Below, one piece after another: positions 28,987 to 48,185 of a DNA stretch of 63,200 nt. The DNA is taken from contig CADACC010000003.1 of assembly GCA_902786275.1 (NCBI GenBank), positions 1 through 63,200 on the forward strand, in the 5' to 3' direction. Both the position numbers and the translations under genes were made by a program. Numbering within the stretch: the first letter of the stretch is position 1; every line of letters starts with the position of its first letter. This DNA comes from an uncultured Erysipelotrichaceae bacterium (GTDB taxonomy: Bacteria > Bacillota_I > Bacilli_A > RF39 > UBA660). The notes under the pieces are model-generated. The model searched no databases, was not told the DNA's origin, and saw only the letters and a list, made by a program, of their open reading frames with translations.

Positions 28987-28995
28987 TGTTATAAT
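28987..28995 (+). promoter_or_regulatory. Extended -10 element (TGTTATAAT) of rplS
   Basis: TGTTATAAT sits 82 nt upstream of the rplS ATG and leaves an ~75-nt leader. Confidence 0.5.
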
Positions 28996-32875: not shown

Positions 32876-34207
32876 ATGAACCATAGTTTTGATGAACTTA
32901 GAAGTACATATAATGAAATAATATATAGAAGTTATAATGCTAGTTTTGATGGTGAAGAAATTAAAATAAGTTTTAATTTTGAAATACCTAATTTAGTTTC
33001 TTTTAATCCATCAATATCTTTTAATAAAAGTATAGTTACTAATAAAAATATTGATGACAAATTGTTAAATGCTATTGTATTTAGAATAGGTTTAGTTGAG
33101 TTGATTAGTTATTATAAAGTATGCTGTCCTAAGAACATTATTCTTGAAGCTGGCTATATAGATGAAGATGAGCAAAAATGGTTTAAAAAACTATTTTATA
33201 ATGGCTTAGGTGAGTTCTTTTATAAAAATAATATAGAAGTTTCTGAAGATGAATTATTTACATTTATTAATAAGGGTGAAAAAATTGTAATTGATAATGT
33301 TACATATAATGGTGAAGGTAACTTGATTCCAATAGGTGGTGGGAAAGACTCTATTGTTACATTTGAACTTCTTAAAGGTTTTGATAATAAAACTGTTACA
33401 ATGAACCCTAAAGATGAACACTATAAATGCTCAAATGGTGTTGATTTAATTGCTATTAAAAGAAACTTTGATAGAGAAAAACTTATGGATTTAAATAGTA
33501 AAGGTTATTTAAATGGTCATATACCTTTTAGTGCAGTCGTTGCATTTGTTACATATTTAGTTGCTTTTTTATCAAATAGAAAATATATAGTACTTTCAAA
33601 TGAAGGTAGTGCAAATGAATCAACAGTTATTGGAACAAATATAAATCATCAGTATTCTAAGTCATATGAATTTGAAAGAGATTTTTATGATTATACAAAA
33701 AAATATTTTAAAATTGATATAAATTACTTTAGTTTACTTAGACCAATTAAAGAAATACAAATAGCTTATTTATTTTCTAAGCTTGATAATTATCATAAGA
33801 TATTTAAAAGCTGTAATTTAGGTTCTAAAGAAAATCCTTGGGTATGGTGCTGTAAGTGCCCTAAATGCTTGTTTGTATATATTATATTAAGAGCATTCTT
33901 ACCACAAGATAAGTTAATAGATATATTTGGAACAAATATGCTTGATGATAAAGAATTAGAAAATTATTTTCTTGAACTTATTGGTGAAGCTGAAACTAAA
34001 CCATTTGAATGTGTCGGAACTATTGATGAAGTTAAGTATGCACTAAATAAAATTATTGAAGATAATGATAATTCATATTTAGTTAATTTATATAAAGCTA
34101 AGTATTATAAAGCAGTTGATATAGATATACATAAGCTTTATTATGAACATAATGTTCCTGATGAATATTTAAATATATTAAAAGAGGCTATAGAAAATGC
34201 AAAGTAA
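32876..34207 (+). CDS. PP-loop (adenine nucleotide alpha-hydrolase-like) protein with CxxC pair; candidate MurL-type UDP-MurNAc-L-Ala-L-Glu epimerase
   Basis: IPIGGGKDSIVT PP-loop; WCCKCPKCLFVY cysteine cluster; 11-nt overlap with the downstream murD-type ligase. Confidence 0.4.
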   Translation: MNHSFDELRSTYNEIIYRSYNASFDGEEIKISFNFEIPNLVSFNPSISFNKSIVTNKNIDDKLLNAIVFRIGLVELISYYKVCCPKNIILEAGYIDEDEQKWFKKLFYNGLGEFFYKNNIEVSEDELFTFINKGEKIVIDNVTYNGEGNLIPIGGGKDSIVTFELLKGFDNKTVTMNPKDEHYKCSNGVDLIAIKRNFDREKLMDLNSKGYLNGHIPFSAVVAFVTYLVAFLSNRKYIVLSNEGSANESTVIGTNINHQYSKSYEFERDFYDYTKKYFKIDINYFSLLRPIKEIQIAYLFSKLDNYHKIFKSCNLGSKENPWVWCCKCPKCLFVYIILRAFLPQDKLIDIFGTNMLDDKELENYFLELIGEAETKPFECVGTIDEVKYALNKIIEDNDNSYLVNLYKAKYYKAVDIDIHKLYYEHNVPDEYLNILKEAIENAK

Positions 34208-35546
34208 AATTATTGAAGAATTACAAAAATATAGTAATATTGCTATTTTAGGTTTTGGTAAAGAAGGAAGATCAACTTATAACTATATAAGAAAGTATGA
34301 TACTTCTTTAAAACTTACTATTCTTGATGCTAAAGATATTACTTTAGAAGATAATAATGTATCTATTAAAAAATATAATAATACCTTAGATGAACTACTT
34401 CCATATGATTTAATCATTAAAACTCCAGGTATTGCTTTTGCATCATTTGATCAAAAAAGAGTAGAAGAAGAACTTAAAAGTAAGATTACATCACAGATGG
34501 AACTACTTTTAAAATTTAATCGTAAGAATGTTATTGGTATTACTGGAACTAAAGGCAAATCAACAACATCAACTCTTCTATATAATGTGTTAAAAGATCA
34601 ACTTGATAATGTCTTTTTAGTTGGTAATATCGGAATTCCTGTATTTGATAAATTAGATGAATTTAATGATGGTATTATAGTTGCTGAAATGAGTTCTCAT
34701 CAACTTGAGTTTATTGATGAATCTCCGCATATTGGTATTATTTTAAATTTATTTGTTGATCACTTAGATCATACTGATTCAGTTGATGCATATCATAATG
34801 CTAAAATAAATATTATTAGATACCAAGATGAAGATGATTATGCTATATACGATAAAGATAATAAGTTTATAAAAGAAAAAGATTTTTCATTATTTAAAGG
34901 TAAAAAACTTACAGTAAGTAATGAAGAAGAAGCAAGTATATATATAGATAAAGAATTAAATATATATGCTCAAGGAGAGTTCTTATTTCATAAACATGAC
35001 ATTATTACACAACTTCAAGGAGATCATAATTTAAAAAATATTATGTTTGTTTTAATGGTTGCTAAACTATATAATTTAGATATGCTTAAAGTACTAGATT
35101 CAATTAGAAACTTTAAACCACTAGAACACAGAATGGAATACTTTGGTACTTATGAAGGTATAGCATTTTATGAAGATGCTATTGCAACAATACCTGAGGC
35201 AACAATTAATGCATGTAATACATTAAAAGATGTTGATACACTTATATTTGGTGGTATGGATAGAAATATAGATTATTATTTACTTATTCAATATTTACAA
35301 TCATCTAGTATTAATCATTTTATATGTATGCCTGAGACTGGATATAAAATTGCAGAATTTTTAGATGAAGATAAAGTTATAAAATGTGAAACTTTAGAAG
35401 AGGCAGTTGATCAAGCATTTAAAGTGACTGCAAAGGGTAAAGTATGTATTTTATCTCCAGCAGCATCTAGTTATAATCAATTTGCTAATTTTGAAGAAAA
35501 AGGTAATAGATTTAAAGAACTAGTTAAAAATCATGTAAGTAATTAA
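34197..35546 (+). CDS. murD: MurD-type Mur ligase (UDP-MurNAc-L-Ala : glutamate ligase)
   Basis: N-terminal Rossmann ILGFGKEGRS; P-loop GITGTKGKSTTSTLL; Mur ligase middle and C-terminal domains (LEHRME, SPAASSYNQFANFEEKGNRF). Confidence 0.8.
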   Translation: MQSKIIEELQKYSNIAILGFGKEGRSTYNYIRKYDTSLKLTILDAKDITLEDNNVSIKKYNNTLDELLPYDLIIKTPGIAFASFDQKRVEEELKSKITSQMELLLKFNRKNVIGITGTKGKSTTSTLLYNVLKDQLDNVFLVGNIGIPVFDKLDEFNDGIIVAEMSSHQLEFIDESPHIGIILNLFVDHLDHTDSVDAYHNAKINIIRYQDEDDYAIYDKDNKFIKEKDFSLFKGKKLTVSNEEEASIYIDKELNIYAQGEFLFHKHDIITQLQGDHNLKNIMFVLMVAKLYNLDMLKVLDSIRNFKPLEHRMEYFGTYEGIAFYEDAIATIPEATINACNTLKDVDTLIFGGMDRNIDYYLLIQYLQSSSINHFICMPETGYKIAEFLDEDKVIKCETLEEAVDQAFKVTAKGKVCILSPAASSYNQFANFEEKGNRFKELVKNHVSN

Positions 35547-35556
35547 TAAAGTAAAG

Positions 35557-35588
35557 AAAATGTATTTATTTATAAATACATTTTTTTA
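35557..35588 (+). terminator. Rho-independent terminator after murD
   Basis: AAAATGTATTTA ttta TAAATACATTTT followed by a T-run. Confidence 0.7.
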
Positions 35589-35591
35589 TTA

Positions 35592-35600
35592 TGTTATAAT
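35592..35600 (+). promoter_or_regulatory. Extended -10 element (TGTTATAAT) of the hydrolase-HAD-HAD-TIR operon
   Basis: TGTTATAAT sits 29 nt upstream of the ATG at 35629; the SD AGGAG lies between them. Confidence 0.5.
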
Positions 35601-35628
35601 TATAAATATGTAGAATAGGAGTATTTAT

Positions 35629-36255
35629 ATGCCATCACTTTTAATACATTTAGCTGTAGGAAAAAAAGTAAATGATAAATTGTGTAAGAAAGAAGAACCA
35701 TTTTTAACTGGATGTATTGCACCAGATTTAGCAAAGATGGTTGGTATAAAAAGAGAGGTATCTCATTTTGAAGATGAAGAAGGTAATTGTCATTTAGATC
35801 AATTTTTAGATAAATATAGAGAATATTTTAATAATGAATACGTTCTTGGTTATTACGTTCATTTATATACAGATTATTTATGGTATAAATATTTTACATC
35901 TGAATTTATGGGCGATGATTATGTTATAAAAAAAGATGGAACTAAGGTTAAATGCATTAGTGAGAATATGGAAAAACTTTATATATATAATGATTATTCT
36001 AATTTGAATATGGATATAATTAATGAGTACGGTTTGGATCTAGAGTTCTTTCATCGAAATGAATACTATTCTAATAACATTATTGAAGAAGTACCTTATG
36101 ATAAAATGAATATTTTAATAGATGAAACAATAAGATATTTAACTAAAAAGAATTATGAGCATAATTTTACTTTTGATTTTAATGATGTAAAACAATTTAT
36201 TGATATAATTGTTGATTATATTATTGCTCATTTAAAAGAAGAAAAGTTAATATAG
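35629..36255 (+). CDS. Putative metal-dependent hydrolase (zinc phospholipase C-like / His-rich fold); family uncertain
   Basis: N-terminal SLLIHLAVG, CIAPDL, SHF and YYVHLYTDYLWY His/Asp-containing motifs. Confidence 0.25.
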   Translation: MPSLLIHLAVGKKVNDKLCKKEEPFLTGCIAPDLAKMVGIKREVSHFEDEEGNCHLDQFLDKYREYFNNEYVLGYYVHLYTDYLWYKYFTSEFMGDDYVIKKDGTKVKCISENMEKLYIYNDYSNLNMDIINEYGLDLEFFHRNEYYSNNIIEEVPYDKMNILIDETIRYLTKKNYEHNFTFDFNDVKQFIDIIVDYIIAHLKEEKLI

Positions 36256-36268
36256 GAACTGATCATAT

Positions 36269-36931
36269 ATGAAATATAAATATGTAATTTTAGATTTTGG
36301 TAAAGTAGTTGCGGGCCCACTTAATGAAATGTGGGACTTTACTCCAAAGTTTGTTGAACTTATAGATACAAGTAAAATTGATAAGATTAAATATAAAAAG
36401 TTAAGAAGTGAGATAGAACATATTTTATATGAAAAAGTATTAACTTTAGATGAAGAGTATAATATGTTTTATAATTTTTACGAATATATTTTAAGTAGAT
36501 TAAATATAGATAATTATTCATCAAAAATGGTAGAAGAAATTGCTTATGATAGAACATATAATAATGATAAATACTATTTATATCCAGAGATATATGATGA
36601 ACTTGAATATTTAAGTTCTAAATATAAGTTATTAATGTTATCAGATAACTGGCCTTGTGGAATTGAATACATGAAAAAACATAATCTTGATAAATATTTT
36701 GATAAGATATATATTTCATCTTTATATGGATTTTTAAAGCAGGATAAGATTTTTTTTGATTATTTAATTAATGATTATGACATTAAACCAGGTGAAGCTT
36801 TATTTATTGATGATATTGAATCTAATTTGGATGTTGGAAAAGAAAAAGGCTTGGACTGCATTTTGATGGATAGATATAATACCGGTATAATTTCAAAATA
36901 TAAAATAATAAATACTTTACTAGATATTTAA
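36269..36931 (+). CDS. HAD-superfamily hydrolase (subfamily IA-like)
   Basis: Motif I variant VILDFGKV; motif III/IV K...FIDDIESNLDVGKEKG. Confidence 0.6.
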   Translation: MKYKYVILDFGKVVAGPLNEMWDFTPKFVELIDTSKIDKIKYKKLRSEIEHILYEKVLTLDEEYNMFYNFYEYILSRLNIDNYSSKMVEEIAYDRTYNNDKYYLYPEIYDELEYLSSKYKLLMLSDNWPCGIEYMKKHNLDKYFDKIYISSLYGFLKQDKIFFDYLINDYDIKPGEALFIDDIESNLDVGKEKGLDCILMDRYNTGIISKYKIINTLLDI

Positions 36932-36949
36932 ATTAAGGAGAATAAAGTA

Positions 36950-37576
36950 ATGATTAAAAATATAATATTTGATATAGGAAATGTTATAGCTTACTATAAT
37001 ATGAAAGAAGCTATTAAGATGTTTACAAAAAATGAAGAAGATGAAAAGTTTTTATATGATAATGTTTATCAGTCACCTGAATGGATTGGATCAGCTTTAA
37101 TAGATTCTGGCTTTTTATCATATGAAGATATAGCAACTATTATTTGCGATCGAACTAATCATGTTAAGGATGAACTTATAACTAATTTTTTAGTTAATCA
37201 TTTGAAAGGTTTTAGAATTAATCAAGACATAGTTGATTTAATGAAAAAACTAAAAACAAATGGATATAAAGTTTATATACTTTCTAACACTAATCAAAGA
37301 GCAATCGATTATTTATCAAGTTTATCTGATTTTATTAGTATTGCAGATGGACATGTATTTTCATTTGAAAATCATAGTTTAAAACCTCATGTTGGTATTT
37401 ATAAAGAATTAATAAATAAATATAACTTAAATCCTGAAGAGTCAATGTTTATTGATGATGTTGAAGAAAATATGAAAACTGCTAATAAACTTGGAATTAA
37501 GGGTAGATTTGTTTTAAAAGATGATTATAATAGTGTTATATCAAGTTTAAAGGAACAAGGCATTAATATAGATTAA
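36950..37576 (+). CDS. HAD-superfamily phosphatase (subfamily IA variant)
   Basis: IIFDIGNV, ILSNTN, KP...IY and FIDDVEENMKTANKLGI motifs. Confidence 0.75.
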   Translation: MIKNIIFDIGNVIAYYNMKEAIKMFTKNEEDEKFLYDNVYQSPEWIGSALIDSGFLSYEDIATIICDRTNHVKDELITNFLVNHLKGFRINQDIVDLMKKLKTNGYKVYILSNTNQRAIDYLSSLSDFISIADGHVFSFENHSLKPHVGIYKELINKYNLNPEESMFIDDVEENMKTANKLGIKGRFVLKDDYNSVISSLKEQGINID

Positions 37577-37590
37577 GGTTGTGATTATTT

Positions 37591-39999
37591 ATGGATAAAG
37601 AATTTAAATATGATGCTTTTATAAGTTATAGGCATTGTGACTTAGATAAGTTTGTTGCTGAAAATTTACATAAAGTATTAGAAACATATGAACTTCCCAA
37701 AAATGTTAAAGAAAAATTAGGTATTACTGGAAGAACTATTAAAAGAGTATTTAGAGATCAAGATGAACTTCCGCTTTCAAGTAATCTAGAAGATCCAATC
37801 GTAGATGCATTAAATAATTCTAAATATTTAATAGTTATATGTTCACCTAGATTAAAGGATTCTATGTGGTGTAAGAAAGAAATAGAAACTTTTAAAAAGG
37901 TTAGAGGTAGAAAGAATATTTTCTGCGTATTAATTGAGGGTGAACCTGTTGATTCTTTTCCAGAAGAAGTTTGCTTTGATGAAGTTGAAACTAAAGATAA
38001 AAATGGAAAGAAAAAGATAGAAAGAATACCTGTTGAACCGCTAGCTGCTGATGTTAGAGGAGAAAATAAAAAAGAAGTATTAAAGAAAATAAAAGAAGAA
38101 AAATTAAGATTAATTGCTCCAATGTATAATCTTGATTATGATGATTTGAAACAAAGACATAAATTAAGAAAAATGCATCAAATGATTGTTACATCTGTAT
38201 GTGTTACAGCATTTTGTTTACTATTTGCAATATATTCTACATTTATGTTTTTAAAGATAAATAGTCAGCAAAAGAAGCTTAAGCTTAATCAAGCAATAAA
38301 TTTATCTAAAGAGTCAGTAAATAAATTAAATAATGATAGTCGTACTGCAGCTGTAAAAAAAGCATATCAATCCCTAACAAAATATAATGGCGTTAAAATG
38401 CCATATACATCTGATGCTGAATATGCTTTAACTGAGGCTCTAGGAGTATATGATGTTGGTATTACAAATAAAGCTGCAGGTGAATATAAAACAAAAGGTG
38501 TAGTTGATTTTATTAAGTCATCGCCTAATCACAAATATGCTTTAGTTTATGATGAAGCTGAAGAACTTACTTTAATTGATTCAAATAAACTTAAAAAAAT
38601 AAATACATATGGTAATATTAATGGCTTTTTATTTAATAAAGAATCATTTACATTTATAGGTGATTCTAAAATAGCATATATTGATAATAATGGATCTGTG
38701 TTAGTATATGATATTAAATCGGGTAAAAAAGTAAAAGAGTTTAAAAAAGATAAAGCTAGTTTTATATCTATAAATAGTGATTATAACGGTAAATACCTTA
38801 TTTTAAATAATTCTTACAAGACTTATATATATGATACAGATAAGTTTAATAAATTAGGTGAATTTGATGCATCTGGTCAAGCTATATCAAGTGAAATGAG
38901 ATTTACTGATGATGCTAAATATGTTTTTATTGGAACTAATAAAGACTCTATTATTTTAGGTGAAGATGATAATATTACAATGCATGTTTTAAATACATCT
39001 AATCTAAAAGAAGAAGATAAGTTTTCTATTAACGCTAAATATATATCTGATATTGTAGATAATGGTAAAGGAAATATATTTGTTCTTTCTAATCAGTCTT
39101 ATAAAAATTATATGAGTATGGAAGTTTATTCTTATAGTTATAAGAATAAAAAAGTAAACTGGCATAAATCTTTTGAAGATATATGGGGTAAGTATATTCA
39201 ATTAAGTTTATATGATGAGGTAAGTAACTTGGCTTTAGTTAATACAAGTAATGTTAGAGTTTTAAGTCAAGAAGATGGATCATTTATAAGTTCATTTAAT
39301 TTAAAAAGTGAAGCTGTTGGAATCCTAGCATCTTATACTTCTGATTTATATGTTGCCTTTACTAAAGAGGGTAATGTTAATTTTCTAAATCTAAAAAACG
39401 GTGAGAATTATATAAATCCAGATTTATTTAATTTAAAACTTAAAAATTATAATAACGTAGTTCAAAATGAAAAAGGTTATTTACTTACTGCTAAGAATGA
39501 TAATAGAGTTATAAGTTATACTAAACATAAAGCTAAAATATTAAAAGAAGAAGAGAAAAAAGATAATAAATATATAACTGATGACTCTATAAGTGTTAAT
39601 AAATTTGATGAAGTAAAAAAAGAGTATAACATTGAAAAGAAGAACTTAGTTGATAGAATGCTATTTGATAATAAGAAAAAGATATTATTTGTTACTTATA
39701 AAGATAGTACTTTAGGTATTTATGATGCTAAAAACAAAAAATTAATTAAAATGATTAATGATGTTACATCAATTGAACACTACTTTGGTAAAGATAAATA
39801 TGGAAGAACTTATGTAGGTGATTTATCTAATTCTTATATTTTAGATAAAGACTATAATAAAGTAGGTCATATTAAATCGTTATCAAAACTTGATAGTAAA
39901 AATAATCAAGTTATAGTAACTTATAATGGTGTAAATTATACTCTTCCAATTTATACATTAGATGATTTACTTAAAGAAGCTAAAGCTTATTTAAAATAA
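37591..39999 (+). CDS. TIR domain - single TM helix - beta-propeller repeat protein (receptor-like)
   Basis: TIR: YDAFISYRHCD...RVFRDQDELP...YLIVICSPRLKDSMWCKKEIE. Basic KQRHKLRKMHQ + TM IVTSVCVTAFCLLFAIYSTFMFL. About 580 aa of blade-like repeats follow (GSVLVYDIKSGKKVKEF, TYIYDTDKFNKLGEF, STLGIYDAKNKKLIKMI). Confidence 0.75.
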   Translation: MDKEFKYDAFISYRHCDLDKFVAENLHKVLETYELPKNVKEKLGITGRTIKRVFRDQDELPLSSNLEDPIVDALNNSKYLIVICSPRLKDSMWCKKEIETFKKVRGRKNIFCVLIEGEPVDSFPEEVCFDEVETKDKNGKKKIERIPVEPLAADVRGENKKEVLKKIKEEKLRLIAPMYNLDYDDLKQRHKLRKMHQMIVTSVCVTAFCLLFAIYSTFMFLKINSQQKKLKLNQAINLSKESVNKLNNDSRTAAVKKAYQSLTKYNGVKMPYTSDAEYALTEALGVYDVGITNKAAGEYKTKGVVDFIKSSPNHKYALVYDEAEELTLIDSNKLKKINTYGNINGFLFNKESFTFIGDSKIAYIDNNGSVLVYDIKSGKKVKEFKKDKASFISINSDYNGKYLILNNSYKTYIYDTDKFNKLGEFDASGQAISSEMRFTDDAKYVFIGTNKDSIILGEDDNITMHVLNTSNLKEEDKFSINAKYISDIVDNGKGNIFVLSNQSYKNYMSMEVYSYSYKNKKVNWHKSFEDIWGKYIQLSLYDEVSNLALVNTSNVRVLSQEDGSFISSFNLKSEAVGILASYTSDLYVAFTKEGNVNFLNLKNGENYINPDLFNLKLKNYNNVVQNEKGYLLTAKNDNRVISYTKHKAKILKEEEKKDNKYITDDSISVNKFDEVKKEYNIEKKNLVDRMLFDNKKKILFVTYKDSTLGIYDAKNKKLIKMINDVTSIEHYFGKDKYGRTYVGDLSNSYILDKDYNKVGHIKSLSKLDSKNNQVIVTYNGVNYTLPIYTLDDLLKEAKAYLK

Positions 40000-40002
40000 T
40001 GT

Positions 40003-40033
40003 AAAAACCGATAACAAATTATCGGTTTTTTTT
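40003..40033 (+). terminator. Rho-independent terminator after the TIR gene
   Basis: AAAACCGAT aacaaatt ATCGGTTTT followed by TTTT. Confidence 0.85.
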
Positions 40034-40041
40034 GTTATAAT
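40033..40041 (+). promoter_or_regulatory. Extended -10 element (TGTTATAAT) of the NUDIX-NADAR operon
   Basis: TGTTATAAT directly abuts the terminator T-run, 28 nt upstream of the ATG at 40069. Confidence 0.5.
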
Positions 40042-40068
40042 AAAGTTTAATTAATGAGGAATATTTAT

Positions 40069-40605
40069 ATGAAGACAGTAGAGCTAAATGATAATAATTT
40101 AACTTTAAATGATATAAGTAAGTTTGAACATAAAAGTAGAGCTATACTTATGCAAGGTGATATGATTCTTGTTGCAAGCTATGGTGGAGTATTTTTACTT
40201 CCTGGTGGTAAAGTTGATGAAGATAAAAATGAATCATCTAAACTTGCATTAATTAGAGAGTTAAAAGAGGAAACTGGTGTTAATTATACTTTAGATGAAT
40301 TAACTCAAGTTTTAACTTTAAGATGGTTTCAATCAAGTTATCCAACTAGAAGTAAAGATGTAATTAATAGATATTTAGAAACTGATTATTTTATAGCTGA
40401 TTTTAAAGGAATAGATTTAAATAATGTTCATAGAACTGAAAAAGAATTAAAGGATGGATTTTCACTTAAACTAATATCAATTGAGGAATTTGCTAAGACA
40501 TTATCTGTTGGTTCTGATAATCCTCGAAAGAAATTTTTTGATAAAGAAAATGAAATAGTAATAGATACTATTAGATCTATTAGAGAAAGTAGAGGGCGAA
40601 AATGA
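40069..40605 (+). CDS. NUDIX hydrolase
   Basis: Nudix box: LPGGKVDEDKNESSKLALIRELKEETGV (E-x7-REUxEExGU). The ATG at 40069 is preceded by GAGG. Confidence 0.75.
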   Translation: MKTVELNDNNLTLNDISKFEHKSRAILMQGDMILVASYGGVFLLPGGKVDEDKNESSKLALIRELKEETGVNYTLDELTQVLTLRWFQSSYPTRSKDVINRYLETDYFIADFKGIDLNNVHRTEKELKDGFSLKLISIEEFAKTLSVGSDNPRKKFFDKENEIVIDTIRSIRESRGRK

Positions 40606-41081
40606 TTAAATTATTTGATAAAGATATGAACGAAATAAAATTTAGTATTCCTGATTATCAATTAAAATTATTCCCATTAGATAATTTTTCATCATTTGGT
40701 TTAAATATGGACAATGAATATTTTCAAACTAGTGAACATGCTTTTCAGTATTTAAAGTTTATTGATAATAATACTAATATAGCTAATAAGATAAAAGAAT
40801 CTTATTCACCAGATGATGCTAGAAGAATAGCTCATGAAAATAAAGAATATAGATTATCTAATTGGTCAGATATTAAATATATAAACATGGAAAAAGTATT
40901 AAGGTTAAAAGTTAATCAAAATCCAATTGTAAAAAAATGTTTACTTGATACAAAAGATTATATTATTGCAGAGGTATGTATAGATGAAGATACAGACTGG
41001 GGTCTTGATAATAATAATCAAGGAAATAATAATTTAGGTAAAATATGGATGAAAATAAGAGAGGATTTAAAGGGTAAATAA
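40602..41081 (+). CDS. NADAR (YbiA/DUF1768) domain protein
   Basis: FQTSEHAFQYLKF ... DARRIAHE ... WSDIKYINMEKVLRLKVNQNP ... DTDWGLD ... NNLGKIWMKIRE; ATGA overlap with the upstream NUDIX gene. Confidence 0.7.
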   Translation: MIKLFDKDMNEIKFSIPDYQLKLFPLDNFSSFGLNMDNEYFQTSEHAFQYLKFIDNNTNIANKIKESYSPDDARRIAHENKEYRLSNWSDIKYINMEKVLRLKVNQNPIVKKCLLDTKDYIIAEVCIDEDTDWGLDNNNQGNNNLGKIWMKIREDLKGK

Positions 41082-41872
41082 TGAAAAGTTTAATTAGCAT
41101 TAATTATAAGTTTATGGAAGTAAGTCCTAAAGAACTTGCAAAACTTATTAATTTATCTAAATATACAAAAGGTGTAGAGATTAATGTAGATGTAAATAAA
41201 GATGAAGAAATGAAATATTTAAACGATTTAGTTTTTGAACTTAAGAAAAATGATTTAATACTTCAAGTTCATGGTGAAGTTACTTTAGAATTAGATAAGC
41301 AAATAGAATTTATGAAGTTAATTGAAAATTATTCAGATTATCTAGGTTATCCTATTGTTGTTACAATGCATACTATTTATGACGAAGATGAAAATATATC
41401 TATATCTAAAACAATTAATTATATATCTAGTTTGTTAACTAAAATTAATAAGAACAAAATAGTACTTTGTTTAGAAAATTTAAATGACATTAGAGGTTTT
41501 AACAATAGATTAAATAAAGAAGATATAAAACCTTTAGTTTTAAATGATGAAAAATTATATTTTACATATGATATAGGTCATGAAATTGCTGACTATGGAC
41601 CTATTGTAAATCTTGATGGTTATATGTTTAGCGATATACGAAATGTACACTTACATTCATATAATGATCAAGGAGTTGACCATATTCCTATTTATAAAAA
41701 TGATAGACATTATCAAGATATTATTAAAGCTTTAGAGTTTTTAATAATAAATCATTATGAATATAATATAGTTTATGAATATGGTCTTGAATATTGTGCT
41801 GGAAATACAACTATTGATAAAATTAAAGAATATTTAAACTCCATTGATCTAGTGAGTGAAAAATATAATTAA
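41081..41872 (+). CDS. Xylose isomerase-like / AP endonuclease 2 family TIM-barrel protein
   Basis: CLENLN, YDIGHE and HLHSYN...DHIPI metal-ligand pattern; TAATG overlap with the NADAR gene. Confidence 0.45.
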   Translation: MKSLISINYKFMEVSPKELAKLINLSKYTKGVEINVDVNKDEEMKYLNDLVFELKKNDLILQVHGEVTLELDKQIEFMKLIENYSDYLGYPIVVTMHTIYDEDENISISKTINYISSLLTKINKNKIVLCLENLNDIRGFNNRLNKEDIKPLVLNDEKLYFTYDIGHEIADYGPIVNLDGYMFSDIRNVHLHSYNDQGVDHIPIYKNDRHYQDIIKALEFLIINHYEYNIVYEYGLEYCAGNTTIDKIKEYLNSIDLVSEKYN

Positions 41873-41931
41873 TATAGCAATACTAAGAAAAGAAATAATG
41901 AAAATAGCAATAGATAAGGAAGAAATATAAT

Positions 41932-42450
41932 ATGGAATTATTAGATGTAGTAGATGAAAATGGAAAATTTACTGGAGAGGTTATGGAGCGAGAAAATGTC
42001 CATGATCTTAATTTACTGCACTGGGAGATAGCTGTATTTATTGTAAATAAAAATAATCAAGTTTTACTTCAAAAAAGATCTCCTAATAAGAGATTTAATC
42101 CTAATAAATGGGGATTATGTGCAGGACATGTAGATAGTGGAGAAACATTAGAAGATACTGCTTTAAGAGAAGTAGAAGAAGAAATAGGTATTAAATATAA
42201 TATTAGTGATTTACATATTTTAGAAGAAATGGAAGTTAATAAAAGGGAATCTAATTCTCATATAGTTAGATATTATTATATTTATTGTGCTGAGAATAGC
42301 TTTTATATACAAACTGAAGAGTTATCTGAAGTTAGATGGTTTGATATTGATGATGTAATAAATATGGTAAAAAATAATGATGATTCATTAGTAATTAAAG
42401 AAGATAGACTTTATCTACTTGAAAGATTAAAAGATTTACTTAAGAATTAA
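41932..42450 (+). CDS. NUDIX hydrolase (Idi-like subgroup)
   Basis: Perfect Nudix box GHVDSGETLEDTALREVEEEIGI; paralog of 45315..45854. Confidence 0.85.
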   Translation: MELLDVVDENGKFTGEVMERENVHDLNLLHWEIAVFIVNKNNQVLLQKRSPNKRFNPNKWGLCAGHVDSGETLEDTALREVEEEIGIKYNISDLHILEEMEVNKRESNSHIVRYYYIYCAENSFYIQTEELSEVRWFDIDDVINMVKNNDDSLVIKEDRLYLLERLKDLLKN

Positions 42451-42573: not shown

Positions 42574-45246
42574 ATGAAGAGAGTATTAAATCTTTTAGTA
42601 ATAATTTTATCTATATTTGTATTTAATGTAACTTCTGCATCTGCAGAGGTGCCTGCTGATGCCGTTTACGAAGTTAATGGTAATTATAAAAGTAAATTTT
42701 CAGATATTTTAAAATTTGTACCTAATGATACAAAAACAACTATAACTTTACTTAAAGATCAAAATGAAGCAATAACTATACCAAACGGAAAGAATATTGT
42801 ATTAGATTTAAATCAACATACATTAAGTGTACTTGATAATAAAAATGTTATTAGTAATAATGGTATATTAGAAATTATTAATGGTACTGTTACATCTGAT
42901 GTTGCATCAGGTATGATTAATAATAATCAAACAGGTACACTATATTTAAATGAAGGTACTTATAAAGCAACTGGTAAAAGACAAGCTATATATAATGATG
43001 GTGGTACTTTATATATATCTGGTAGTGCTGCACTTGAGTCTGCTTCTACAGAAAGAGCAACTGTTCATAATAGAAGAAGCGGAAAAATATATATTACTGG
43101 TGGAACAATTACATCTACTGGTTTGTATGCTATTTATAATGAAAATGGTTCTATTGATATTGGAACTAAAGATAATAAGTTTGATAAGAGTAAGCCAATT
43201 ATTCAAGGTAAAACATTTGGTGTAGCAGCTAATAATACTTTTAATTTTTATGATGGTATTATTAGAGGTTTAGAAGCTCCTGTTGGTAAAACATCTAATA
43301 CTGGTAATACACCTAATGTTACTGAAGACAAAGATCAAACTAAAGTAAATGATATTGAAGTAGATGCTGAGAAAAAAACACTAACAAATGATGATGGATA
43401 TAAAGAATTTTATTATTTTATTGATGAATCAAAAATAAAAATAACATTTGATCCAACTGGTGGAGAAGTGTCTCCAACGTATATAAAAATCACTATTGGT
43501 GATGCACTTGGAACACTACCTGTTCCTTCAAGAGTAGATTATTCATTTGATGGATGGTTTACTGATGAAACTGGCGGAGTAAAAATTACTGAATATACAA
43601 CACCAATAATGGCTTCTACATATTATGCACACTGGACATATGTCGATCCAAATTCTGTTGCTACCGTTGAAGGTGTAGGAGATATGTCTTTAAAAGAGGC
43701 ATTCCTACAAGGTGGTAATATTACTCTTAATAAAGATGTTATAATTACTGAACCACTTGCAATGCCTAAAGAAGCAACTCTTAATTTAAATGGTCATACA
43801 ATTACTTTAAATGATAATTATATTATGATTGAAGATAAAGTAAAAATAACTGATTTAACAGATGAACAAAAAGGAAAAATTACATCTACAGATGATTTTA
43901 CAATTTATGTTGGTTACAAAACTAATTATCCTGATGCTTCCTTAACACTTGAAGGTGGAACTATTGAAGGCTTAGGAATATACGGAGCTATATGGAACTA
44001 TGAAACAACAATAATTGATGGGGGAACAGTTACTGGTACAGCATCTACTCCAAGCGAGTATGAAGGACAAGTAATTTATAATACAAAGAATTTGATTATG
44101 AAATCTGGTACTGTATATTCATCAAATGGACATGCAGTTCAAGTTTATAAAAACTCAACATTTACTATGGATGGCGGACTATTAAAAAGTGATGCTACAA
44201 ATGATCAAACATTAAATTTATGGGGTGATTGTTCAGCAACTATTAATGGTGGAACTATTGAAGGATTAGAAGAAGAAACTGCTGGTATTGCAATGTTTGG
44301 AAATACTAATCTAACAATAAATGGTGGAACTATTATAGGACACTCTATGGCTGTTGCTGGTAATGGTAATGCTAAAAGTTCTAATGCTAATATTACTATT
44401 AATGGTGGAGATTTAATATCACTTCATGGTGTTGGAATTTATTATCCTCAAAGAGATAGTGTAGCTATTATTAATGGTGGTACTATTTCTGGACCTACAG
44501 GAATAGAGGTAAGATCATCTCAATTAATTGTTAATGATGGAACAATTATAGCTACTAGTGACACTTATAGTGTAAATCCTGAAACAAATGGTACAACATC
44601 AAAAGGTATTGCAATTGCTGTATCACAGCATACAACTCAAATGCCAATAGACGTTACTATCAATGGAGGAACATTAAAGGGAATTGTTCCATTAGTTGAA
44701 GTTAATCCACTTAATAATCCTGAAGAAGCTATCAATAAAATTAAGATCACTGTAAATAAAGGAAATTTTGTTTCAACTGGTGATAGAGTTATGGATATTC
44801 AAGATGAAATCCCAATATCTTTATCTGTTACTGGTGGTTTTTATACAACTGATCCTTCTCAATATGTTAGTGAAGGATATGGAGTTGTTAAACACTCTAA
44901 AAACCTATATGAAGTAACAAAAGTTCATAACATTATTATAGAACAAGGTGATATGAATATAGTGTCTGTTGATAGTGCTAAATATCCATATAAAGAAACA
45001 GTTTTATTTAATATTAAAGATGGTAATAAATATAGTGTTACAGTAACTGTTAAAGATGCTAATGGTAATACTATAAAGCTTAATAATAATTCATTTATAA
45101 TGCCTGATAGTGATGTTACTATTAGTGTTGAATATGAAAAGATTATTAATCCTACAACAAATGATAACATATCTAATTATATAATTATGTTAACTATAAG
45201 TTCACTTGGATTAATAATATTTACTAAAAAATTAATAAAAGCCTAA
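42574..45246 (+). CDS. Large surface protein: signal peptide, beta-helix-like G-rich repeats, Listeria-Bacteroides (Flg_new) repeat, sortase-B-like sorting signal
   Basis: SASA/EV signal cleavage site. FDPTGGEVSP...YSFDGWFTDETGG...YYAHW repeat. Reiterated INGGTI/LNGHTI turns. C-terminal NPTTN + hydrophobic IIMLTISSLGLIIF + KKLIKA. Confidence 0.7.
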   Translation: MKRVLNLLVIILSIFVFNVTSASAEVPADAVYEVNGNYKSKFSDILKFVPNDTKTTITLLKDQNEAITIPNGKNIVLDLNQHTLSVLDNKNVISNNGILEIINGTVTSDVASGMINNNQTGTLYLNEGTYKATGKRQAIYNDGGTLYISGSAALESASTERATVHNRRSGKIYITGGTITSTGLYAIYNENGSIDIGTKDNKFDKSKPIIQGKTFGVAANNTFNFYDGIIRGLEAPVGKTSNTGNTPNVTEDKDQTKVNDIEVDAEKKTLTNDDGYKEFYYFIDESKIKITFDPTGGEVSPTYIKITIGDALGTLPVPSRVDYSFDGWFTDETGGVKITEYTTPIMASTYYAHWTYVDPNSVATVEGVGDMSLKEAFLQGGNITLNKDVIITEPLAMPKEATLNLNGHTITLNDNYIMIEDKVKITDLTDEQKGKITSTDDFTIYVGYKTNYPDASLTLEGGTIEGLGIYGAIWNYETTIIDGGTVTGTASTPSEYEGQVIYNTKNLIMKSGTVYSSNGHAVQVYKNSTFTMDGGLLKSDATNDQTLNLWGDCSATINGGTIEGLEEETAGIAMFGNTNLTINGGTIIGHSMAVAGNGNAKSSNANITINGGDLISLHGVGIYYPQRDSVAIINGGTISGPTGIEVRSSQLIVNDGTIIATSDTYSVNPETNGTTSKGIAIAVSQHTTQMPIDVTINGGTLKGIVPLVEVNPLNNPEEAINKIKITVNKGNFVSTGDRVMDIQDEIPISLSVTGGFYTTDPSQYVSEGYGVVKHSKNLYEVTKVHNIIIEQGDMNIVSVDSAKYPYKETVLFNIKDGNKYSVTVTVKDANGNTIKLNNNSFIMPDSDVTISVEYEKIINPTTNDNISNYIIMLTISSLGLIIFTKKLIKA

Positions 45247-45262
45247 TAAGGCTTTTATTTTT
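45237..45262 (+). terminator. Rho-independent terminator
   Basis: AAAAGCCT aata AGGCTTTT followed by ATTTTTT. Confidence 0.75.
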
Positions 45263-45264
45263 TA

Positions 45265-45273
45265 TGTTATAAT
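45265..45273 (+). promoter_or_regulatory. Extended -10 element (TGTTATAAT)
   Basis: TGTTATAAT sits 42 nt upstream of the ATG at 45315. Confidence 0.45.
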
Positions 45274-45314: not shown

Positions 45315-45854
45315 ATGATTGAATATTTTGATGTATTAAATGAAAAAGGTGAATTTACTAATCTAGTAAAAAGTAGAGAAGAATGTCATAAGGAAGGATT
45401 ATGGCATAAAGCTGTAGTCGTATTTATAATAAGCACTAATAATAAAAGAGTTTTATTACAGCAAAGAAGTTCAAATAAAAAATTATGGCCAAATCTATGG
45501 GATATAACTGCTGGTGGACATGTTTTAAAAGGTGAGTTTGGGTATCAAACTGTAATTAGAGAAACTAAAGAAGAAATTGGTATTGATATAGATAAAAAAG
45601 ATTTAGAATTTATCGGAGGTACGATTTCAGAAAATGTATCTGGAGATATAATTAACAGACATTTTAATGAGTTTTATATTGTACATAAAGATGTTGATAT
45701 AAAAGATATAGTTCTTCAAGAAGAGGAAGTTCAAGATATAAAATGGTTTGATAAAGAAGATCTTATAAATAAAATTAATAATAATTATGACACTTTAACT
45801 GATAAAGTTGGTTGTTGGAATTATTTATTAAAATATTTAGAAATAAATAAATAA
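45315..45854 (+). CDS. NUDIX hydrolase (Idi-like subgroup)
   Basis: GGHVLKGEFGYQTVIRETKEEIGI Nudix box; the N-terminus parallels 41932..42450. Confidence 0.85.
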   Translation: MIEYFDVLNEKGEFTNLVKSREECHKEGLWHKAVVVFIISTNNKRVLLQQRSSNKKLWPNLWDITAGGHVLKGEFGYQTVIRETKEEIGIDIDKKDLEFIGGTISENVSGDIINRHFNEFYIVHKDVDIKDIVLQEEEVQDIKWFDKEDLINKINNNYDTLTDKVGCWNYLLKYLEINK

Positions 45855-45876
45855 AAAATTTTTAATAGGTGAAATT

Positions 45877-46443
45877 ATGACTGTAGAAGAGAAAATATAT
45901 GAAGAAGTAAAAAATAGATGTGAAAAGCCAACAAATGCATATGGTATAGGAGCTTGGGATCATCATATAAAGATTGTTTATGATCTTGTAAAAAAATATG
46001 CAAAAGAATATGGTGCTGATCAAGAAATTGTTTCTATTGCAGCTCTTCTTCATGATATTGCTAGTGTAACAGATGTAAGTTATACAGAGGAACATCATAT
46101 TATTGGTGCTGATATTGCTGAAAAACTTTTAATTAATGAGAATTATTCTAAAGAAAAAATTAAATTGATCAAAAATTGTATTTTGAATCATAGAGGTAGT
46201 AGATTAGCTAGTAAAACTACACCTGAAGAAATATGTATTGCTGATTGTGATGCTATGGCACACTTTTATAGTATTCCATCACTTTTAAGTATGGTGTATA
46301 AAGAGAAGGGTCTATCTATTGATGATGGAAGCAAATTTGTTATGGATAAGCTTGATAGAAGTTATAACAAAATGTCTGAAAAGGGTAAGATTTTAGTTAG
46401 TAAACAGTATGAGTCTGCTAAAAACATTTTAAAAAATGATTAA
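45877..46443 (+). CDS. HD-domain phosphohydrolase
   Basis: HHIKIVYDLV...AALLHDIAS...ILNHRG...DCDAMAH. Confidence 0.8.
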   Translation: MTVEEKIYEEVKNRCEKPTNAYGIGAWDHHIKIVYDLVKKYAKEYGADQEIVSIAALLHDIASVTDVSYTEEHHIIGADIAEKLLINENYSKEKIKLIKNCILNHRGSRLASKTTPEEICIADCDAMAHFYSIPSLLSMVYKEKGLSIDDGSKFVMDKLDRSYNKMSEKGKILVSKQYESAKNILKND

Positions 46444-46461
46444 TTAAGTATAGGTGAAATT

Positions 46462-47043
46462 ATGAATAAAATATATATTGTACATTGCTGGGATGGAACT
46501 AAAGATGATGGTTGGTATCCTTGGCTTGATGAAAAATTAACAAATGAAAATAACAAAGTTTTTAGATTTAACATGCCAAATACTGCTAATCCTAAAATAG
46601 GTGAATGGGTATCTTTCCTTGATCAACAAATTGATAATTTAGATGAAAATACTTATTTTGTTGGACATAGTATTGGATGCCAAACTATACTTAGATATTT
46701 ACAATCAAAAGATGTAACAAAAATTGGTGGAGTGCTTCTTGTTGCACCTTGGCTTGATTTACTTGATTATGCTATAGAAGATGAAGAGTCATATGATACT
46801 GCTATGCCTTGGTTAACAGAGAAAATAGATTTTGAAAAAGTTAAAAAATTTACAGATAATATTCACTGTATTTTCTCCGATAATGATTATTTTGTTTCAA
46901 TAGATCAAAAGGATAAATTTGAAAAACTACTTGATGCAAAAACTCTTGTTGTATCAGGCAAGGGTCACATATCTGGAGAAGATAACGTATATGAACTTAA
47001 AGAGATTCTTGATGAATGTAATAAAATGATAAGTGAAAAATAA
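46462..47043 (+). CDS. RBBP9/YdeN-like serine hydrolase (alpha/beta fold)
   Basis: IYIVHCWDG...WYPWL...FVGHSIGCQ...D..V...GH catalytic triad pattern. Confidence 0.7.
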   Translation: MNKIYIVHCWDGTKDDGWYPWLDEKLTNENNKVFRFNMPNTANPKIGEWVSFLDQQIDNLDENTYFVGHSIGCQTILRYLQSKDVTKIGGVLLVAPWLDLLDYAIEDEESYDTAMPWLTEKIDFEKVKKFTDNIHCIFSDNDYFVSIDQKDKFEKLLDAKTLVVSGKGHISGEDNVYELKEILDECNKMISEK

Positions 47044-47070
47044 TAACTATATTTTGGGAAGGATTTTTTT

Positions 47071-47631
47071 ATGTCTTTAAAAGATACAATTGAGAGTTAT
47101 GTTCCTCTTGATGAACAAGAAGAAAAAGATAAAGAACAAATGCTTATGTTTATTGATAATTTTGATGATGTTTTAACAAGAAATAATGTTGTTGGTCATT
47201 TTTCAGCATCTGCATTTGTTGTTAATAAAGAGAGAACGAAGATGGCCTCTGTTTATCATATAATATCTGATGGGTGGACATATCCTGGTGGTCACGCTGA
47301 TGGAGAAGAAGATTTGCTTAAAGTAGCTTTAAGAGAATGTGAAGAAGAAACAGGATTAAAAGCAAAAGTATTAAGTGATAAACCAATTTTAATATCTTCA
47401 AATTATGTTAAGTCACATATTAAACGTGGGAAGCTTGTTTCATCACATTTACATTTTGATTTTTTATATTTAATGGAAGCAGATGAAAATATAGAATTAA
47501 CATATAGAGAAGATGAATCTAAAGGTGTAAAGTGGATTTCATTTGATGATATTGAAAATGAAAATATGGTTGATTTTGTTAAACCAATTGTTCTTAAGTT
47601 AAGCAAAAAAGTAAAAAGCATGAAATTATAA
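47071..47631 (+). CDS. NUDIX hydrolase
   Basis: GGHADGEEDLLKVALRECEEETGL Nudix box. Confidence 0.85.
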   Translation: MSLKDTIESYVPLDEQEEKDKEQMLMFIDNFDDVLTRNNVVGHFSASAFVVNKERTKMASVYHIISDGWTYPGGHADGEEDLLKVALRECEEETGLKAKVLSDKPILISSNYVKSHIKRGKLVSSHLHFDFLYLMEADENIELTYREDESKGVKWISFDDIENENMVDFVKPIVLKLSKKVKSMKL

Positions 47632-47657
47632 TAAAAACTTTTTTAAGGATGATGTAA

Positions 47658-48185
47658 ATGAAAATATATTTAGTTAGACATGGTCAGTGTGATTCTAATG
47701 TTATAGGTAGATATAACTTTATAAATGAAGATATTAACGAAACAGGAATTAAGCAAGCAGAAGATTTAAGAGAAAAGATAAATGTTATAAATTATGATGT
47801 GGTAATATCTTCACCATTAGTTAGGTCGCTTCATACTGCAAAGATTATTAATACTCATAATAAAGATATAATTACAGATGAAAGATTAGTGGAAAGAAAG
47901 CACGGTTCTTTAGAAGGTAAATCAATTGATGTTACTGATAGAGAAGAATATTGGAATTATTTTACTGATGTTAAATATGGTACTGAAGAAAGAATTCCTG
48001 ATTTATGTAATAGAGTAAAAGAATTTTTAGATGAACTTAAAACAAAAGATTATAATAGTGTATTAATAGTAGCGCATAGTGGTGTTTCAAAAGCTTTTTA
48101 TGTTTATTTTAACGGTATTCCTAAAGATGGTAAAATGCTAAACTTAGGTCTTAAAAATACTGAAGTAAAAGAATATGAACTTTAA
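47658..48185 (+). CDS. Histidine phosphatase (phosphoglycerate mutase-like) family protein
   Basis: IYLVRHGQCDSN (RHG motif), SPLVRSLHTA, VAHSG. Confidence 0.85.
   Translation: MKIYLVRHGQCDSNVIGRYNFINEDINETGIKQAEDLREKINVINYDVVISSPLVRSLHTAKIINTHNKDIITDERLVERKHGSLEGKSIDVTDREEYWNYFTDVKYGTEERIPDLCNRVKEFLDELKTKDYNSVLIVAHSGVSKAFYVYFNGIPKDGKMLNLGLKNTEVKEYEL

Follow-up and report, generated by a model that had tools for sequence, protein, structure and literature searches.

Introduction

Bacterial TIR proteins are known as cytoplasmic NADases and cyclases in phage defence, and as secreted virulence factors. For the PknD/PknB-type receptor Ser/Thr kinases, dimerisation-driven activation is the model. 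In AbTir, the E208A variant is inactive and the W204A variant loses cyclisation (bioRxiv 10.1101/2022.05.07.491051). A survey of E. coli TIR proteins in 2024 noted that the transmembrane (TM) and repeat features of Toll-like receptors (TLRs) seem absent from bacterial TIR systems (PMC11350192). Here we analysed a 63,200-nt stretch of DNA from an uncultured Erysipelotrichaceae bacterium (assembly GCA_902786275.1, contig CADACC010000003.1), called the window below, and a gene on its + strand at 37591-39999 which encodes an 802-aa protein with an N-terminal TIR domain, a single TM helix and a predicted tandem beta-propeller. What appears to be new, judged from sequence and structural models, is an enzymatic-type TIR in a receptor-like, membrane-spanning format. 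We give an even chance to the reading that the gene encodes a type II single-pass receptor enzyme and behaves as a part of core physiology, in sensing the envelope or the environment, more than as a mobile defence module.

Results

Architecture of the 802-aa protein

The open reading frames (ORFs) of the region were all found where an initial annotation, made from the DNA letters, had placed them. The gene and its parts, with the line of evidence for each, are as follows.

37591-39999, + strand: gene of the candidate TIR-TM-tandem-propeller receptor, 802 aa (ORF, Pfam, AlphaFold2 (AF2), Foldseek)
37591-38130, + strand: TIR domain, predicted cytoplasmic, aa 1-180 (Pfam TIR_2, phmmer to L6/L7, Foldseek)
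38182-38250, + strand: single TM helix, aa 198-220 (hydropathy, AF2, family Lys plus Arg (K+R) bias)
38254-38454, + strand: membrane-proximal helical stalk, predicted extracellular, aa 222-288 (AF2, family alignment)
38455-39996, + strand: all-beta region, predicted extracellular, aa 289-802 (AF2, Foldseek, WD40-like)

Pfam TIR_2 matched aa 10-119 (E 2e-10, 41.4 bits against a cutoff of 28), and a ThsB_TIR match overlapping this stronger one scored 24.8 bits against a cutoff of 21.2. In the AF2 model of the whole protein, built from 95 orthologues with a pLDDT of 88.8, aa 7-178 make up the TIR, with an inserted beta-hairpin at aa 129-147. When aa 1-250 were modelled separately, the result matched the TIR domains of RUN1, Roq1, RPP1, L7, SARM1, TLR and AbTir in Foldseek, with RUN1, Roq1, RPP1, SARM1 and AbTir at the top. 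The flavodoxin-like TIR fold of the NAD+-cleaving TIRs was thus recovered by Pfam, AF2 and Foldseek.

The motif S91-x-W93-C94-x-x-E97, in which the initial annotation had recognised a Glu of the catalytic type, is present, with W93 encoded at 37867-37869 and E97 at 37879-37881. When searched with phmmer against PDB sequences, "DSMWCKKEIE" aligned with "DSKWCLMELA" of flax L6, placing W93/E97 on L6 W131/E135. As in NAD+-cleaving TIRs, the Glu is part of helix alpha-C and follows the Trp by four residues (WxxxE), and both residues are invariant in 71 of 71 relatives from two Firmicutes classes. Some 30 positions of the TIR show no or almost no variation across the 71 sequences, including D8, F10, S12, H15, FRD54-56, E59, L60, C84, S91, W93, E97, GEP117-119, A152, R156, R173 and R189. 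The BB-loop (aa 59-69) is invariant in sequence and was modelled with low confidence, which fits a loop that would become ordered on assembly.

This conservation also bears on a non-enzymatic alternative, in which the TIR would be a scaffold that recruits a conserved cytoplasmic partner for envelope assembly, division or adhesion, and would make no nucleotide product. The extreme invariance extends over far more of the TIR surface than its active site, including an EPLAADxRG motif and a juxtamembrane DYDDLxQR; the WCxxE motif is common to TLR TIRs; and the window subclade has genes for the cell wall in the vicinity (polysaccharide deacetylase, MurL/MurD2-like genes, LepB). We nevertheless consider such a scaffold improbable, since both WxxxE residues are invariant in every one of the 71 sequences, the closest structural matches are enzymatic TIRs, and Lachnospiraceae pair the TIR gene with a nucleotide phosphoesterase, as described below.

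Aa 198-220 form the sole hydrophobic segment of the protein (Kyte-Doolittle 2.24; next best 0.78), in agreement with the single TM helix read earlier, and lie inside one unbroken predicted helix at aa 183-247 in the AF2 model. No N-terminal signal peptide was recognised by eye, and no predictor was run. The positive-inside argument, first applied to this protein alone, was weak at that level (5 versus 4 flanking K/R) but held over the family: among 71 members the mean K+R count was 5.45 on the N side of the TM helix versus 2.73 on the C side. Because of the single TM helix and this family-wide bias, the TIR is predicted to be cytoplasmic and the propellers extracytoplasmic, in a type II orientation with the N-terminus inside. 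The window ectodomain of 581 residues contains no Cys, versus 5 in the 196-residue cytoplasmic part. Cys depletion was rejected as a general topology marker, as Bacilli members have 0-2 Cys but Lachnospiraceae members 6-20.

After the long helix, AF2 predicted two or three short helices up to about aa 288, and the stalk (aa 222-288) has residues conserved family-wide (I223, Q226, R251, A254, P271-Y272-T273, L280 and Y287). The all-beta region has about 44 strands and runs to aa 800. Pfam found WD40/beta-propeller families at aa 286-485 and 664-723, and Foldseek matched the ectodomain best to tandem WD40 double propellers, namely Utp21, Pwp2 and axonemal doublet-microtubule WD-repeat proteins (E about 1e-16). 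The propeller of about 580 aa claimed earlier was therefore right as to fold but not as to size: the propeller proper takes about 510 aa (289-800) and follows a helical stalk of about 65 aa. Beyond the stalk next to the membrane, the ectodomain keeps only a few structural residues of the blades.

Between the TIR and the propeller there is a single helix and the stalk only. No NTPase, SAVED, STING, SLOG or Macro domain was found in the protein with Pfam, NCBIfam and PADLOC, and Pfam gave no Pkinase match. The receptor-like type II layout without a STAND/NTPase module, as first proposed, is consistent with Pfam, the family charge bias, AF2 and Foldseek; the last two, which had been suggested as a check, gave a TIR fold and tandem WD40-like propellers.

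A large family with uneven constraint

A word-indexed search gave more than 3,000 matches to the 802-aa protein. Each of the best 120 was a full-length protein (783-825 aa, 48-99% identity), and none had an annotation more specific than "TIR domain-containing protein [Bacilli bacterium]". NCBIfam does not define a family to which the protein would belong. With the TIR alone, phmmer found 12,097 representative clusters (50% identity) at E<=1e-3 and 1,575 at E<=1e-30. Of the best 150 TIR clusters, nearly all were 760-1060 aa long and had the TIR at residues 1-195. Among GTDB species genomes, 535 stretches were confirmed. They include gut and rumen metagenome-assembled genomes (MAGs) labelled Bacilli, Tenericutes or Erysipelotrichaceae at 48-54% identity, and many Lachnospiraceae, mostly MAGs, at 29-36% (Acetatifactor, Wujia, Butyrivibrio and the NC2008 isolate among them). 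Blautia is also among the Lachnospiraceae carriers. These searches showed that the 802-aa protein is, by its sequence, a local member of a very large family of fixed architecture.

The two sides of the membrane differ in constraint. Identity of the TIR to that of the window protein was 74-87% in close Bacilli, 63-66% in a few divergent MAGs and 52-63% in the Lachnospiraceae type, versus 37-44% in close Bacilli and 15-25% in the Lachnospiraceae type for the ectodomain. Sequence comparison thus showed the predicted cytoplasmic TIR to be far more constrained than the ectodomain.

Some Lachnospiraceae carry tandem arrays of two or three receptor paralogues (L018 9974-17499, L028 9974-17507 and L032 10001-15019; L-numbers denote the related loci that were compared). 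The TIRs of the tandem paralogues are 55-70% identical and their ectodomains 28-36%. In the three-copy arrays of L018 and L028, the middle copy has the Trp of WxxxE replaced by Met or Phe with the Glu kept, which hints at heteromeric or regulatory receptor subunits. In L037 the TIR gene is frameshifted, and its apparent +1 gene is the C-terminus of the TIR gene itself.

Inheritance of the gene and screening for defence systems

In the window, SpoU-RimM-TrmD (25.8-27.6 kb) and L19 with LepB (29.1-30.0 kb) are followed by a polysaccharide deacetylase, a MurL/MurD2-like pair, the four genes 208aa-HAD-HAD-TIR, YlqF, RNase HII and TopA (52-57 kb). The TIR gene therefore sits in the conserved core block rimM-trmD-rplS ... 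ylqF-rnhB-topA. The relatives L080, L085, L086 and L087 (56-73% identity) keep the order deacetylase-208aa-HAD-TIR and have different downstream genes. In the distant orthologues L082-L084, YlqF lies 4-8 kb downstream, followed by RNase HII and TopA where the locus reaches that far, and the immediate neighbours again differ. In Lachnospiraceae the TIR gene is flanked by pur, trp and glutaminyl-tRNA synthetase (GlnRS) genes. Contigs carrying relatives are up to 1.03 Mb long, and the genomes of the relatives are suggested to be small.

Neither a set of 50,697 phage genomes nor 2.9 M contigs of IMG/VR contained a relative. Among plasmids there was one full-length match only, on a 243-kb Butyrivibrio fibrisolvens replicon. 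A mobile origin was rejected on these results. PADLOC, run on the window genes and on Lachnospiraceae pairs of a DHH gene and the TIR gene, called no system and gave generic TIR-portion matches only, among them weak ones to the TIR portions of SAVED-TIR (E 5e-6) and PDC-S66. Known defence systems were rejected on this basis, in line with the earlier remark that the locus resembles no named system. No integrase, restriction-modification or other defence gene was seen beside the TIR gene in the loci with Pfam annotation. The GC content of the TIR gene equals that of its surroundings. The synteny, the matching GC, the lack of phage or viral relatives and the lack of a PADLOC system together mark the gene as core-like and vertically inherited, in the small-genome gut and rumen Bacilli and in Lachnospiraceae, and are not what a mobile defence module would be expected to show.

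These results bear on a second alternative, a stand-alone anti-phage (abortive infection) sentinel, in which the propeller would detect phage adsorption or envelope breach and TIR assembly would deplete NAD+ and stop the infected cell. Such a role would suit the full NADase signature of the TIR, the much faster evolution of the ectodomain, the arrays of two or three diverged tandem paralogues in Lachnospiraceae and the weak matches to SAVED-TIR and PDC-S66, and E. coli TIR proteins with TM segments do defend against phage (PMC11350192). The position in a housekeeping block in Bacilli, the pur, trp and GlnRS flanks in Lachnospiraceae and the lack of defence genes beside the TIR gene in Pfam-annotated loci speak against it. 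So do the absence from phage and viral collections, the near absence from plasmids, the retention on contigs of about 1 Mb in apparently small genomes and the lack of a PADLOC system. We regard the sentinel as rather unlikely, though it deserves to be taken seriously.

The plasmid-borne member, WP_167562754.1, is full length and lies at 87800-90244 of pNP243 (L091) in the cultured rumen isolate Butyrivibrio fibrisolvens D1. The replicon is non-mobilisable, and this copy adjoins a gene for an EAL-domain protein and has no DHH partner. L080 (19097-19750) and L086 (10960-11634) carry, in the same syntenic region, chromosomal metallo-beta-lactamase-fold genes matching the Anti-Pycsar Apyc1 Pfam family; the window has no counterpart. 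In a divergent Bacilli subclade (39% identity), LigA, the NAD+-dependent DNA ligase, is directly 5' of the TIR gene (L014 7966-9951 and L049 7784-9769), probably as a coincidence of synteny.

A DHH/DHHA1 partner in Lachnospiraceae

In Lachnospiraceae a DHH/DHHA1 protein of about 506 aa is encoded directly 5' of the TIR gene on the same strand. It was found by Pfam in 30 of 56 upstream genes and by tblastn in 36 loci. The DHH gene flanks the TIR gene in 31 of the 55 Lachnospiraceae-type loci (at -1 in all but one), versus 1 of 687 genes at other positions. Three DHH homologues were chosen by DHH similarity alone, from a Blautia MAG, a Clostridium sp. MAG and a mouse-gut contig, and all three were directly followed by a TIR-TM-propeller gene (20-nt overlap, 4-nt overlap and 14-nt gap). 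Two of these pairs are flanked by pur genes and GlnRS, and the third by the trp operon and a gene for an EAL protein. Judged by gene order, only the DHH/DHHA1 phosphoesterase stands out as a robustly conserved partner of the TIR gene, and this holds for Lachnospiraceae, not for the window. The protein was absent from the window and the Bacilli loci in tblastn, and no conserved partner of the TIR gene was found in the window lineage.

The N-terminal 300 aa of the DHH protein have intact DHH and GGGH motifs, and their best matches among PDB sequences are NrnA/PDE-type enzymes. The C-terminal region of about 200 aa matched nothing in Pfam, NCBIfam or the PDB sequences, and when a profile was built from it, the window and the Bacilli loci gave no hits. 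The DHH-TIR operons (L016-L073 and L088-L090) often have overlapping genes and stand in varied flanking contexts.

Genes around the receptor gene in Bacilli

The window has about 25% GC, and nearly all its genes are on the + strand. The features next to the receptor gene are as follows.

35592-35600, + strand: TGTTATAAT, an extended -10-like element 5' of the four-gene unit, a candidate promoter by position
35629-36255, + strand: 208-aa protein, function unassigned, first gene of the four-gene unit (Zn_dep_PLPC match below threshold)
36269-36931, + strand: HAD1, a HAD-IA phosphatase (Pfam HAD_2/Hydrolase; NCBIfam HAD-IA variant 3-like, under equivalog cutoffs)
36950-37576, + strand: HAD2, a YihX-like HAD-IA phosphatase (Pfam and NCBIfam), adjoining the TIR gene 5' in the close subclade
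40003-40030, + strand: intrinsic terminator closing the four-gene unit, a 12-bp stem and then a T-run
40033-40041, + strand: second TGTTATAAT element, ahead of the downstream NUDIX unit
40054-40605, + strand: NUDIX (Pfam)
40602-41081, + strand: NADAR (Pfam, E 6e-22)
41081-41872, + strand: TIM barrel, below threshold (26.7 bits against 31.1)
41932-42450, + strand: NUDIX (Pfam)

The four genes are as tightly packed as first described, with spacers of 13, 18 and 14 nt, and the strong terminator at 40003 was confirmed. The two HAD phosphatases upstream also stood, and the description of the first gene as a His-rich hydrolase has one sub-threshold Zn_dep_PLPC match behind it (20.8 bits against a cutoff of 26.8). 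The 208-aa protein is kept only in the closest subclade (75% identity to the L080 orthologue) and had no tblastn match among 79 GTDB loci. In the downstream unit the ATGA overlap (40602/40605, 4 nt), the TAATG overlap (41081, 1 nt), the NUDIX domains and the NADAR domain were confirmed; the TIM barrel stayed below threshold, with a weak NCBIfam resemblance to CbiR. The NUDIX at 41932 resembles isopentenyl-diphosphate (IPP) isomerase/YfcD-type Nudix proteins in NCBIfam.

The initial annotation had united the TIR receptor, the upstream HADs and the downstream NUDIX-NADAR-TIM-NUDIX unit into one membrane-triggered pathway that would produce and process NAD+-derived ADP-ribose (ADPR). It could point to the packing of 208aa-HAD-HAD-TIR between a promoter-like element and a terminator, and to the HAD kept at -1 across the close subclade. 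Further support would come from an excess of HD and NUDIX genes beside the TIR gene in 13 other Bacilli loci, and from L009, where a NUDIX gene stands at -1 and a NADAR of 76% identity follows eight genes further downstream. The comparison of loci left this pathway little chance of being right. The NADAR gene adjoins the TIR gene in the window only, and it is of the YbiA type rather than of the ADPR-acting subgroup: it scored 74.7 bits against a cutoff of 73.7 with TIGR02464 (YbiA-type riboflavin biosynthesis intermediates N-glycosidase), and 57.9 bits with the anti-phage NADAR model DS32_2, far short of its cutoff of 240. Four close relatives, L080, L085, L086 and L087, have no NUDIX-NADAR pair beside the TIR gene; in these the TIM-barrel orthologue lies at +2 to +4. 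In the window, the terminator parts the TIR unit from the NUDIX unit, and the region is rich in hydrolases in general.

When the window neighbours were searched by tblastn against the 79 loci, only a few Bacilli loci had NUDIX or HAD genes close to the TIR gene. In the Lachnospiraceae-type loci no NUDIX or HAD was near it, the only matches being NUDIX-like ones 6-7 kb downstream in L052 and L053, and the NUDIX, NADAR, HAD and HD families accounted for 0 of 110 flanking genes in the 55 loci of this type. Unbiased Pfam counts at +-1 in the 13 Bacilli loci gave HD 4, NUDIX 2, HAD 0 and NADAR 0 among 26 genes, and at +-2 to 6 gave HD 3, NUDIX 2 and Metallophos 3 among 110 genes. Orthologue tracking placed the HD, NUDIX and HAD orthologues anywhere from -9 to +10 across genomes. 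The HAD2 orthologue, for example, occupies -1 in the window and in L080, L085, L086 and L087; L010, L026 and L084 have it at -2 to -9. Since these orthologues occupy variable positions, the pattern indicates regional synteny in a hydrolase-rich block and not operon coupling, as far as gene order can tell.

A conserved NUDIX/NADAR/HAD linkage was thus rejected on tblastn, Pfam counts and orthologue tracking, and the outcome which the initial annotation had itself foreseen for that case, a generic hydrolase-rich context, is largely what we found. From sequence, we judged the NUDIX-NADAR-TIM-NUDIX unit to be unrelated housecleaning metabolism outside the TIR system, and the apparent co-transcription of HAD with TIR to be a feature of synteny at the subclade level. 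A neighbour enrichment by phmmer closure (16/42 versus 29/331) was discounted as biased by seed choice and shared ancestry. An ADP-ribosylglycohydrolase next to TIR was ruled out as well, as the two matches were not at +-1.

The TGTTATAAT elements of the initial annotation were found at 35592 and 40033, but not enriched: the window has 6 copies against 4.4 +/- 2.3 in dinucleotide shuffles, which is not above chance. A statistically enriched promoter motif was therefore ruled out, and any promoter role is argued from position. The copies, at 28987, 35592, 40033, 43737, 45265 and 54431, are all on the coding strand; 4 of the 6 are just 5' of genes, and 2 of those 4 directly follow terminators. 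An AT-rich hairpin with a T-run (35557-35587) lies just 5' of the copy at 35592.

Other genes of the window were noted in passing. At 42574-45246, and again in L001 (6521-9211), lies a gene for a surface protein of roughly 890 aa that has a Listeria-Bacteroides repeat and ends in a hydrophobic anchor; it recurs near the TIR gene in at least 2 Bacilli genomes. Five small hydrolase genes (NUDIX, HD, Ser_hydrolase, NUDIX and His_Phos_1) occupy 45315-48185, 3' of a terminator/TGTTATAAT pair at 45234-45273, and the rplS-ylqF interval of the window is unusually hydrolase-rich throughout. Two genes 5' of the four-gene unit (32876-35546) look like a MurL-type epimerase, whose L085 orthologue carries PF26299/PF26298, and a MurD2-like Mur ligase (34197-35546, with Mur_ligase_M/C). 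This pair would amount to an alternative peptidoglycan route, L-Glu and then epimerisation, in small-genome gut Bacilli. The ylqF/rbgA gene at 52075-52898 appears frameshifted, with residues 1-42 in one frame, a stop near 52200 and the rest in another frame from 52221. Its product is a GTPase that is normally essential, and the frameshift reflects either an error in the assembly or a pseudogene.

Discussion

A working model and its weak points

For the receptor enzyme of core physiology that we propose, the mechanism could be as follows. A surface or extracellular cue would bind or cluster the ectodomain, and clustering would bring the cytoplasmic TIRs together via the long juxtamembrane/TM helix. 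TIR active sites arise only between TIRs that have assembled, and NAD+ cleavage or cyclisation would therefore start upon assembly. The output might be ADPR, a nucleotide of the cyclic ADPR (cADPR) type or a local drop of NAD+. Its handling would be lineage-specific, with the translationally coupled DHH/DHHA1 phosphoesterase in Lachnospiraceae.

Several observations weigh against this proposal. Scaffold-type TLR TIRs also keep W-C-x-x-E in the TLR2 alignment, therefore motif conservation alone is no proof of NADase activity. The fast divergence of the ectodomain, like the tandem paralogue arrays of Lachnospiraceae, suits an arms race at least as well as physiological sensing. HD and NUDIX genes show a modest excess at +-1 in Bacilli (6/26 versus 5/110), and some coupling of TIR to nucleotide hydrolases could exist there. 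Finally, neither a ligand nor a downstream reader of a TIR-derived nucleotide was identified in the window lineage.

A broader version of the proposal is more tentative, and we would lean against it at present. The family as a whole might be a prokaryotic outside-in TIR receptor which binds a cue outside the cell with its propellers (a glycan, a wall fragment, or a component of host or phage) and answers it with an NAD+-derived second messenger in the cytoplasm. The messenger would act in the normal physiology of abundant gut Firmicutes, with the DHH/DHHA1 protein of Lachnospiraceae as its dedicated eraser or effector. If this is true, TLR-like logic would have arisen independently in bacteria, and a new nucleotide-signalling pathway would exist outside phage defence.

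The membrane-spanning TIR with a large, predicted extracellular sensor is common, with more than 1,500 clusters and a nearly frozen catalytic domain. If the TIR is active, TIR enzymology driven from outside the cell becomes directly testable in culturable gut commensals, and would be a sign that the core physiology of bacteria makes use of NAD+-derived signals. Through the DHH/DHHA1 operon partner, the TIR product could be approached in a concrete way. A full-text search of the published literature found no bacterial TIR-TM-propeller family and no DHH-TIR pair.

Comparison with known systems

Known TIR-based immune systems differ from this locus in their other components. No SIR2, SLOG or Macro domain of the kinds found in Thoeris ThsA (SIR2-SLOG or TM-Macro) was present among the neighbours in the window or related loci, and PADLOC gave no ThsB match. 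Compared with the TIR effectors of CBASS, Pycsar and type III CRISPR, the locus has no SAVED or STING domain and no cyclase neighbour.

With the enzymatic TIRs (L6/L7/RUN1/RPP1, SARM1, AbTir and ThsB-type), the 802-aa protein has in common the TIR fold, WxxxE in register and a flexible BB-loop, and activation by TIR-TIR assembly would be expected for it too. It differs from them in that its TIR is predicted to be tethered to the membrane by a C-terminal TM helix, fused to an extracellular propeller, and equipped with the beta-hairpin insert at aa 129-147 and the family-specific EPLAADxRG motif. NB-ARC/STAND, SAM/ARM and coiled-coil modules and a ThsA partner are lacking. The TIR-STAND-WD40/TPR conflict proteins of the Aravind type also hold a TIR and WD40-type repeats in one polypeptide (PMC7159879, PMC8195603). 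In the 802-aa protein, by contrast, there is no NTPase module (NB-ARC, NACHT or AP-ATPase), a TM helix parts the TIR from the repeats, the repeats are predicted to be extracytoplasmic, and the gene is core-like and syntenic rather than a diversifying island gene.

The likeness to Toll-like and IL-1 receptors is architectural, with no evidence of shared descent for the whole protein. Both would have a single-pass layout with one TM helix between an extracellular repeat sensor and a cytoplasmic TIR, as predicted for the 802-aa protein, and clustering as the likely logic of activation. Unlike a TLR, which is of type I with leucine-rich repeats (LRRs), the 802-aa protein is of type II with the TIR at the N-terminus, and has a WD40-like propeller and no LRR or Ig. 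We know of no MyD88-like adaptor for the TIR-TM-propeller family.

The Lachnospiraceae partner shares the DHH/GGGH N-terminal 300 aa with the stand-alone DHH/DHHA1 phosphodiesterases NrnA, Pde2, TM1595 and Rv2837c, and differs from NrnA-type enzymes by the extra C-terminal domain of about 200 aa and by translational coupling to the putative TIR receptor. The PknD/PknB-type receptor kinases, with propeller or PASTA sensors, have the topology predicted for the 802-aa protein, in which a catalytic domain at the N-terminus lies in the cytoplasm and is joined through a juxtamembrane segment and one TM helix to an extracellular sensor. In the 802-aa protein, a TIR would replace the kinase as the catalytic module.

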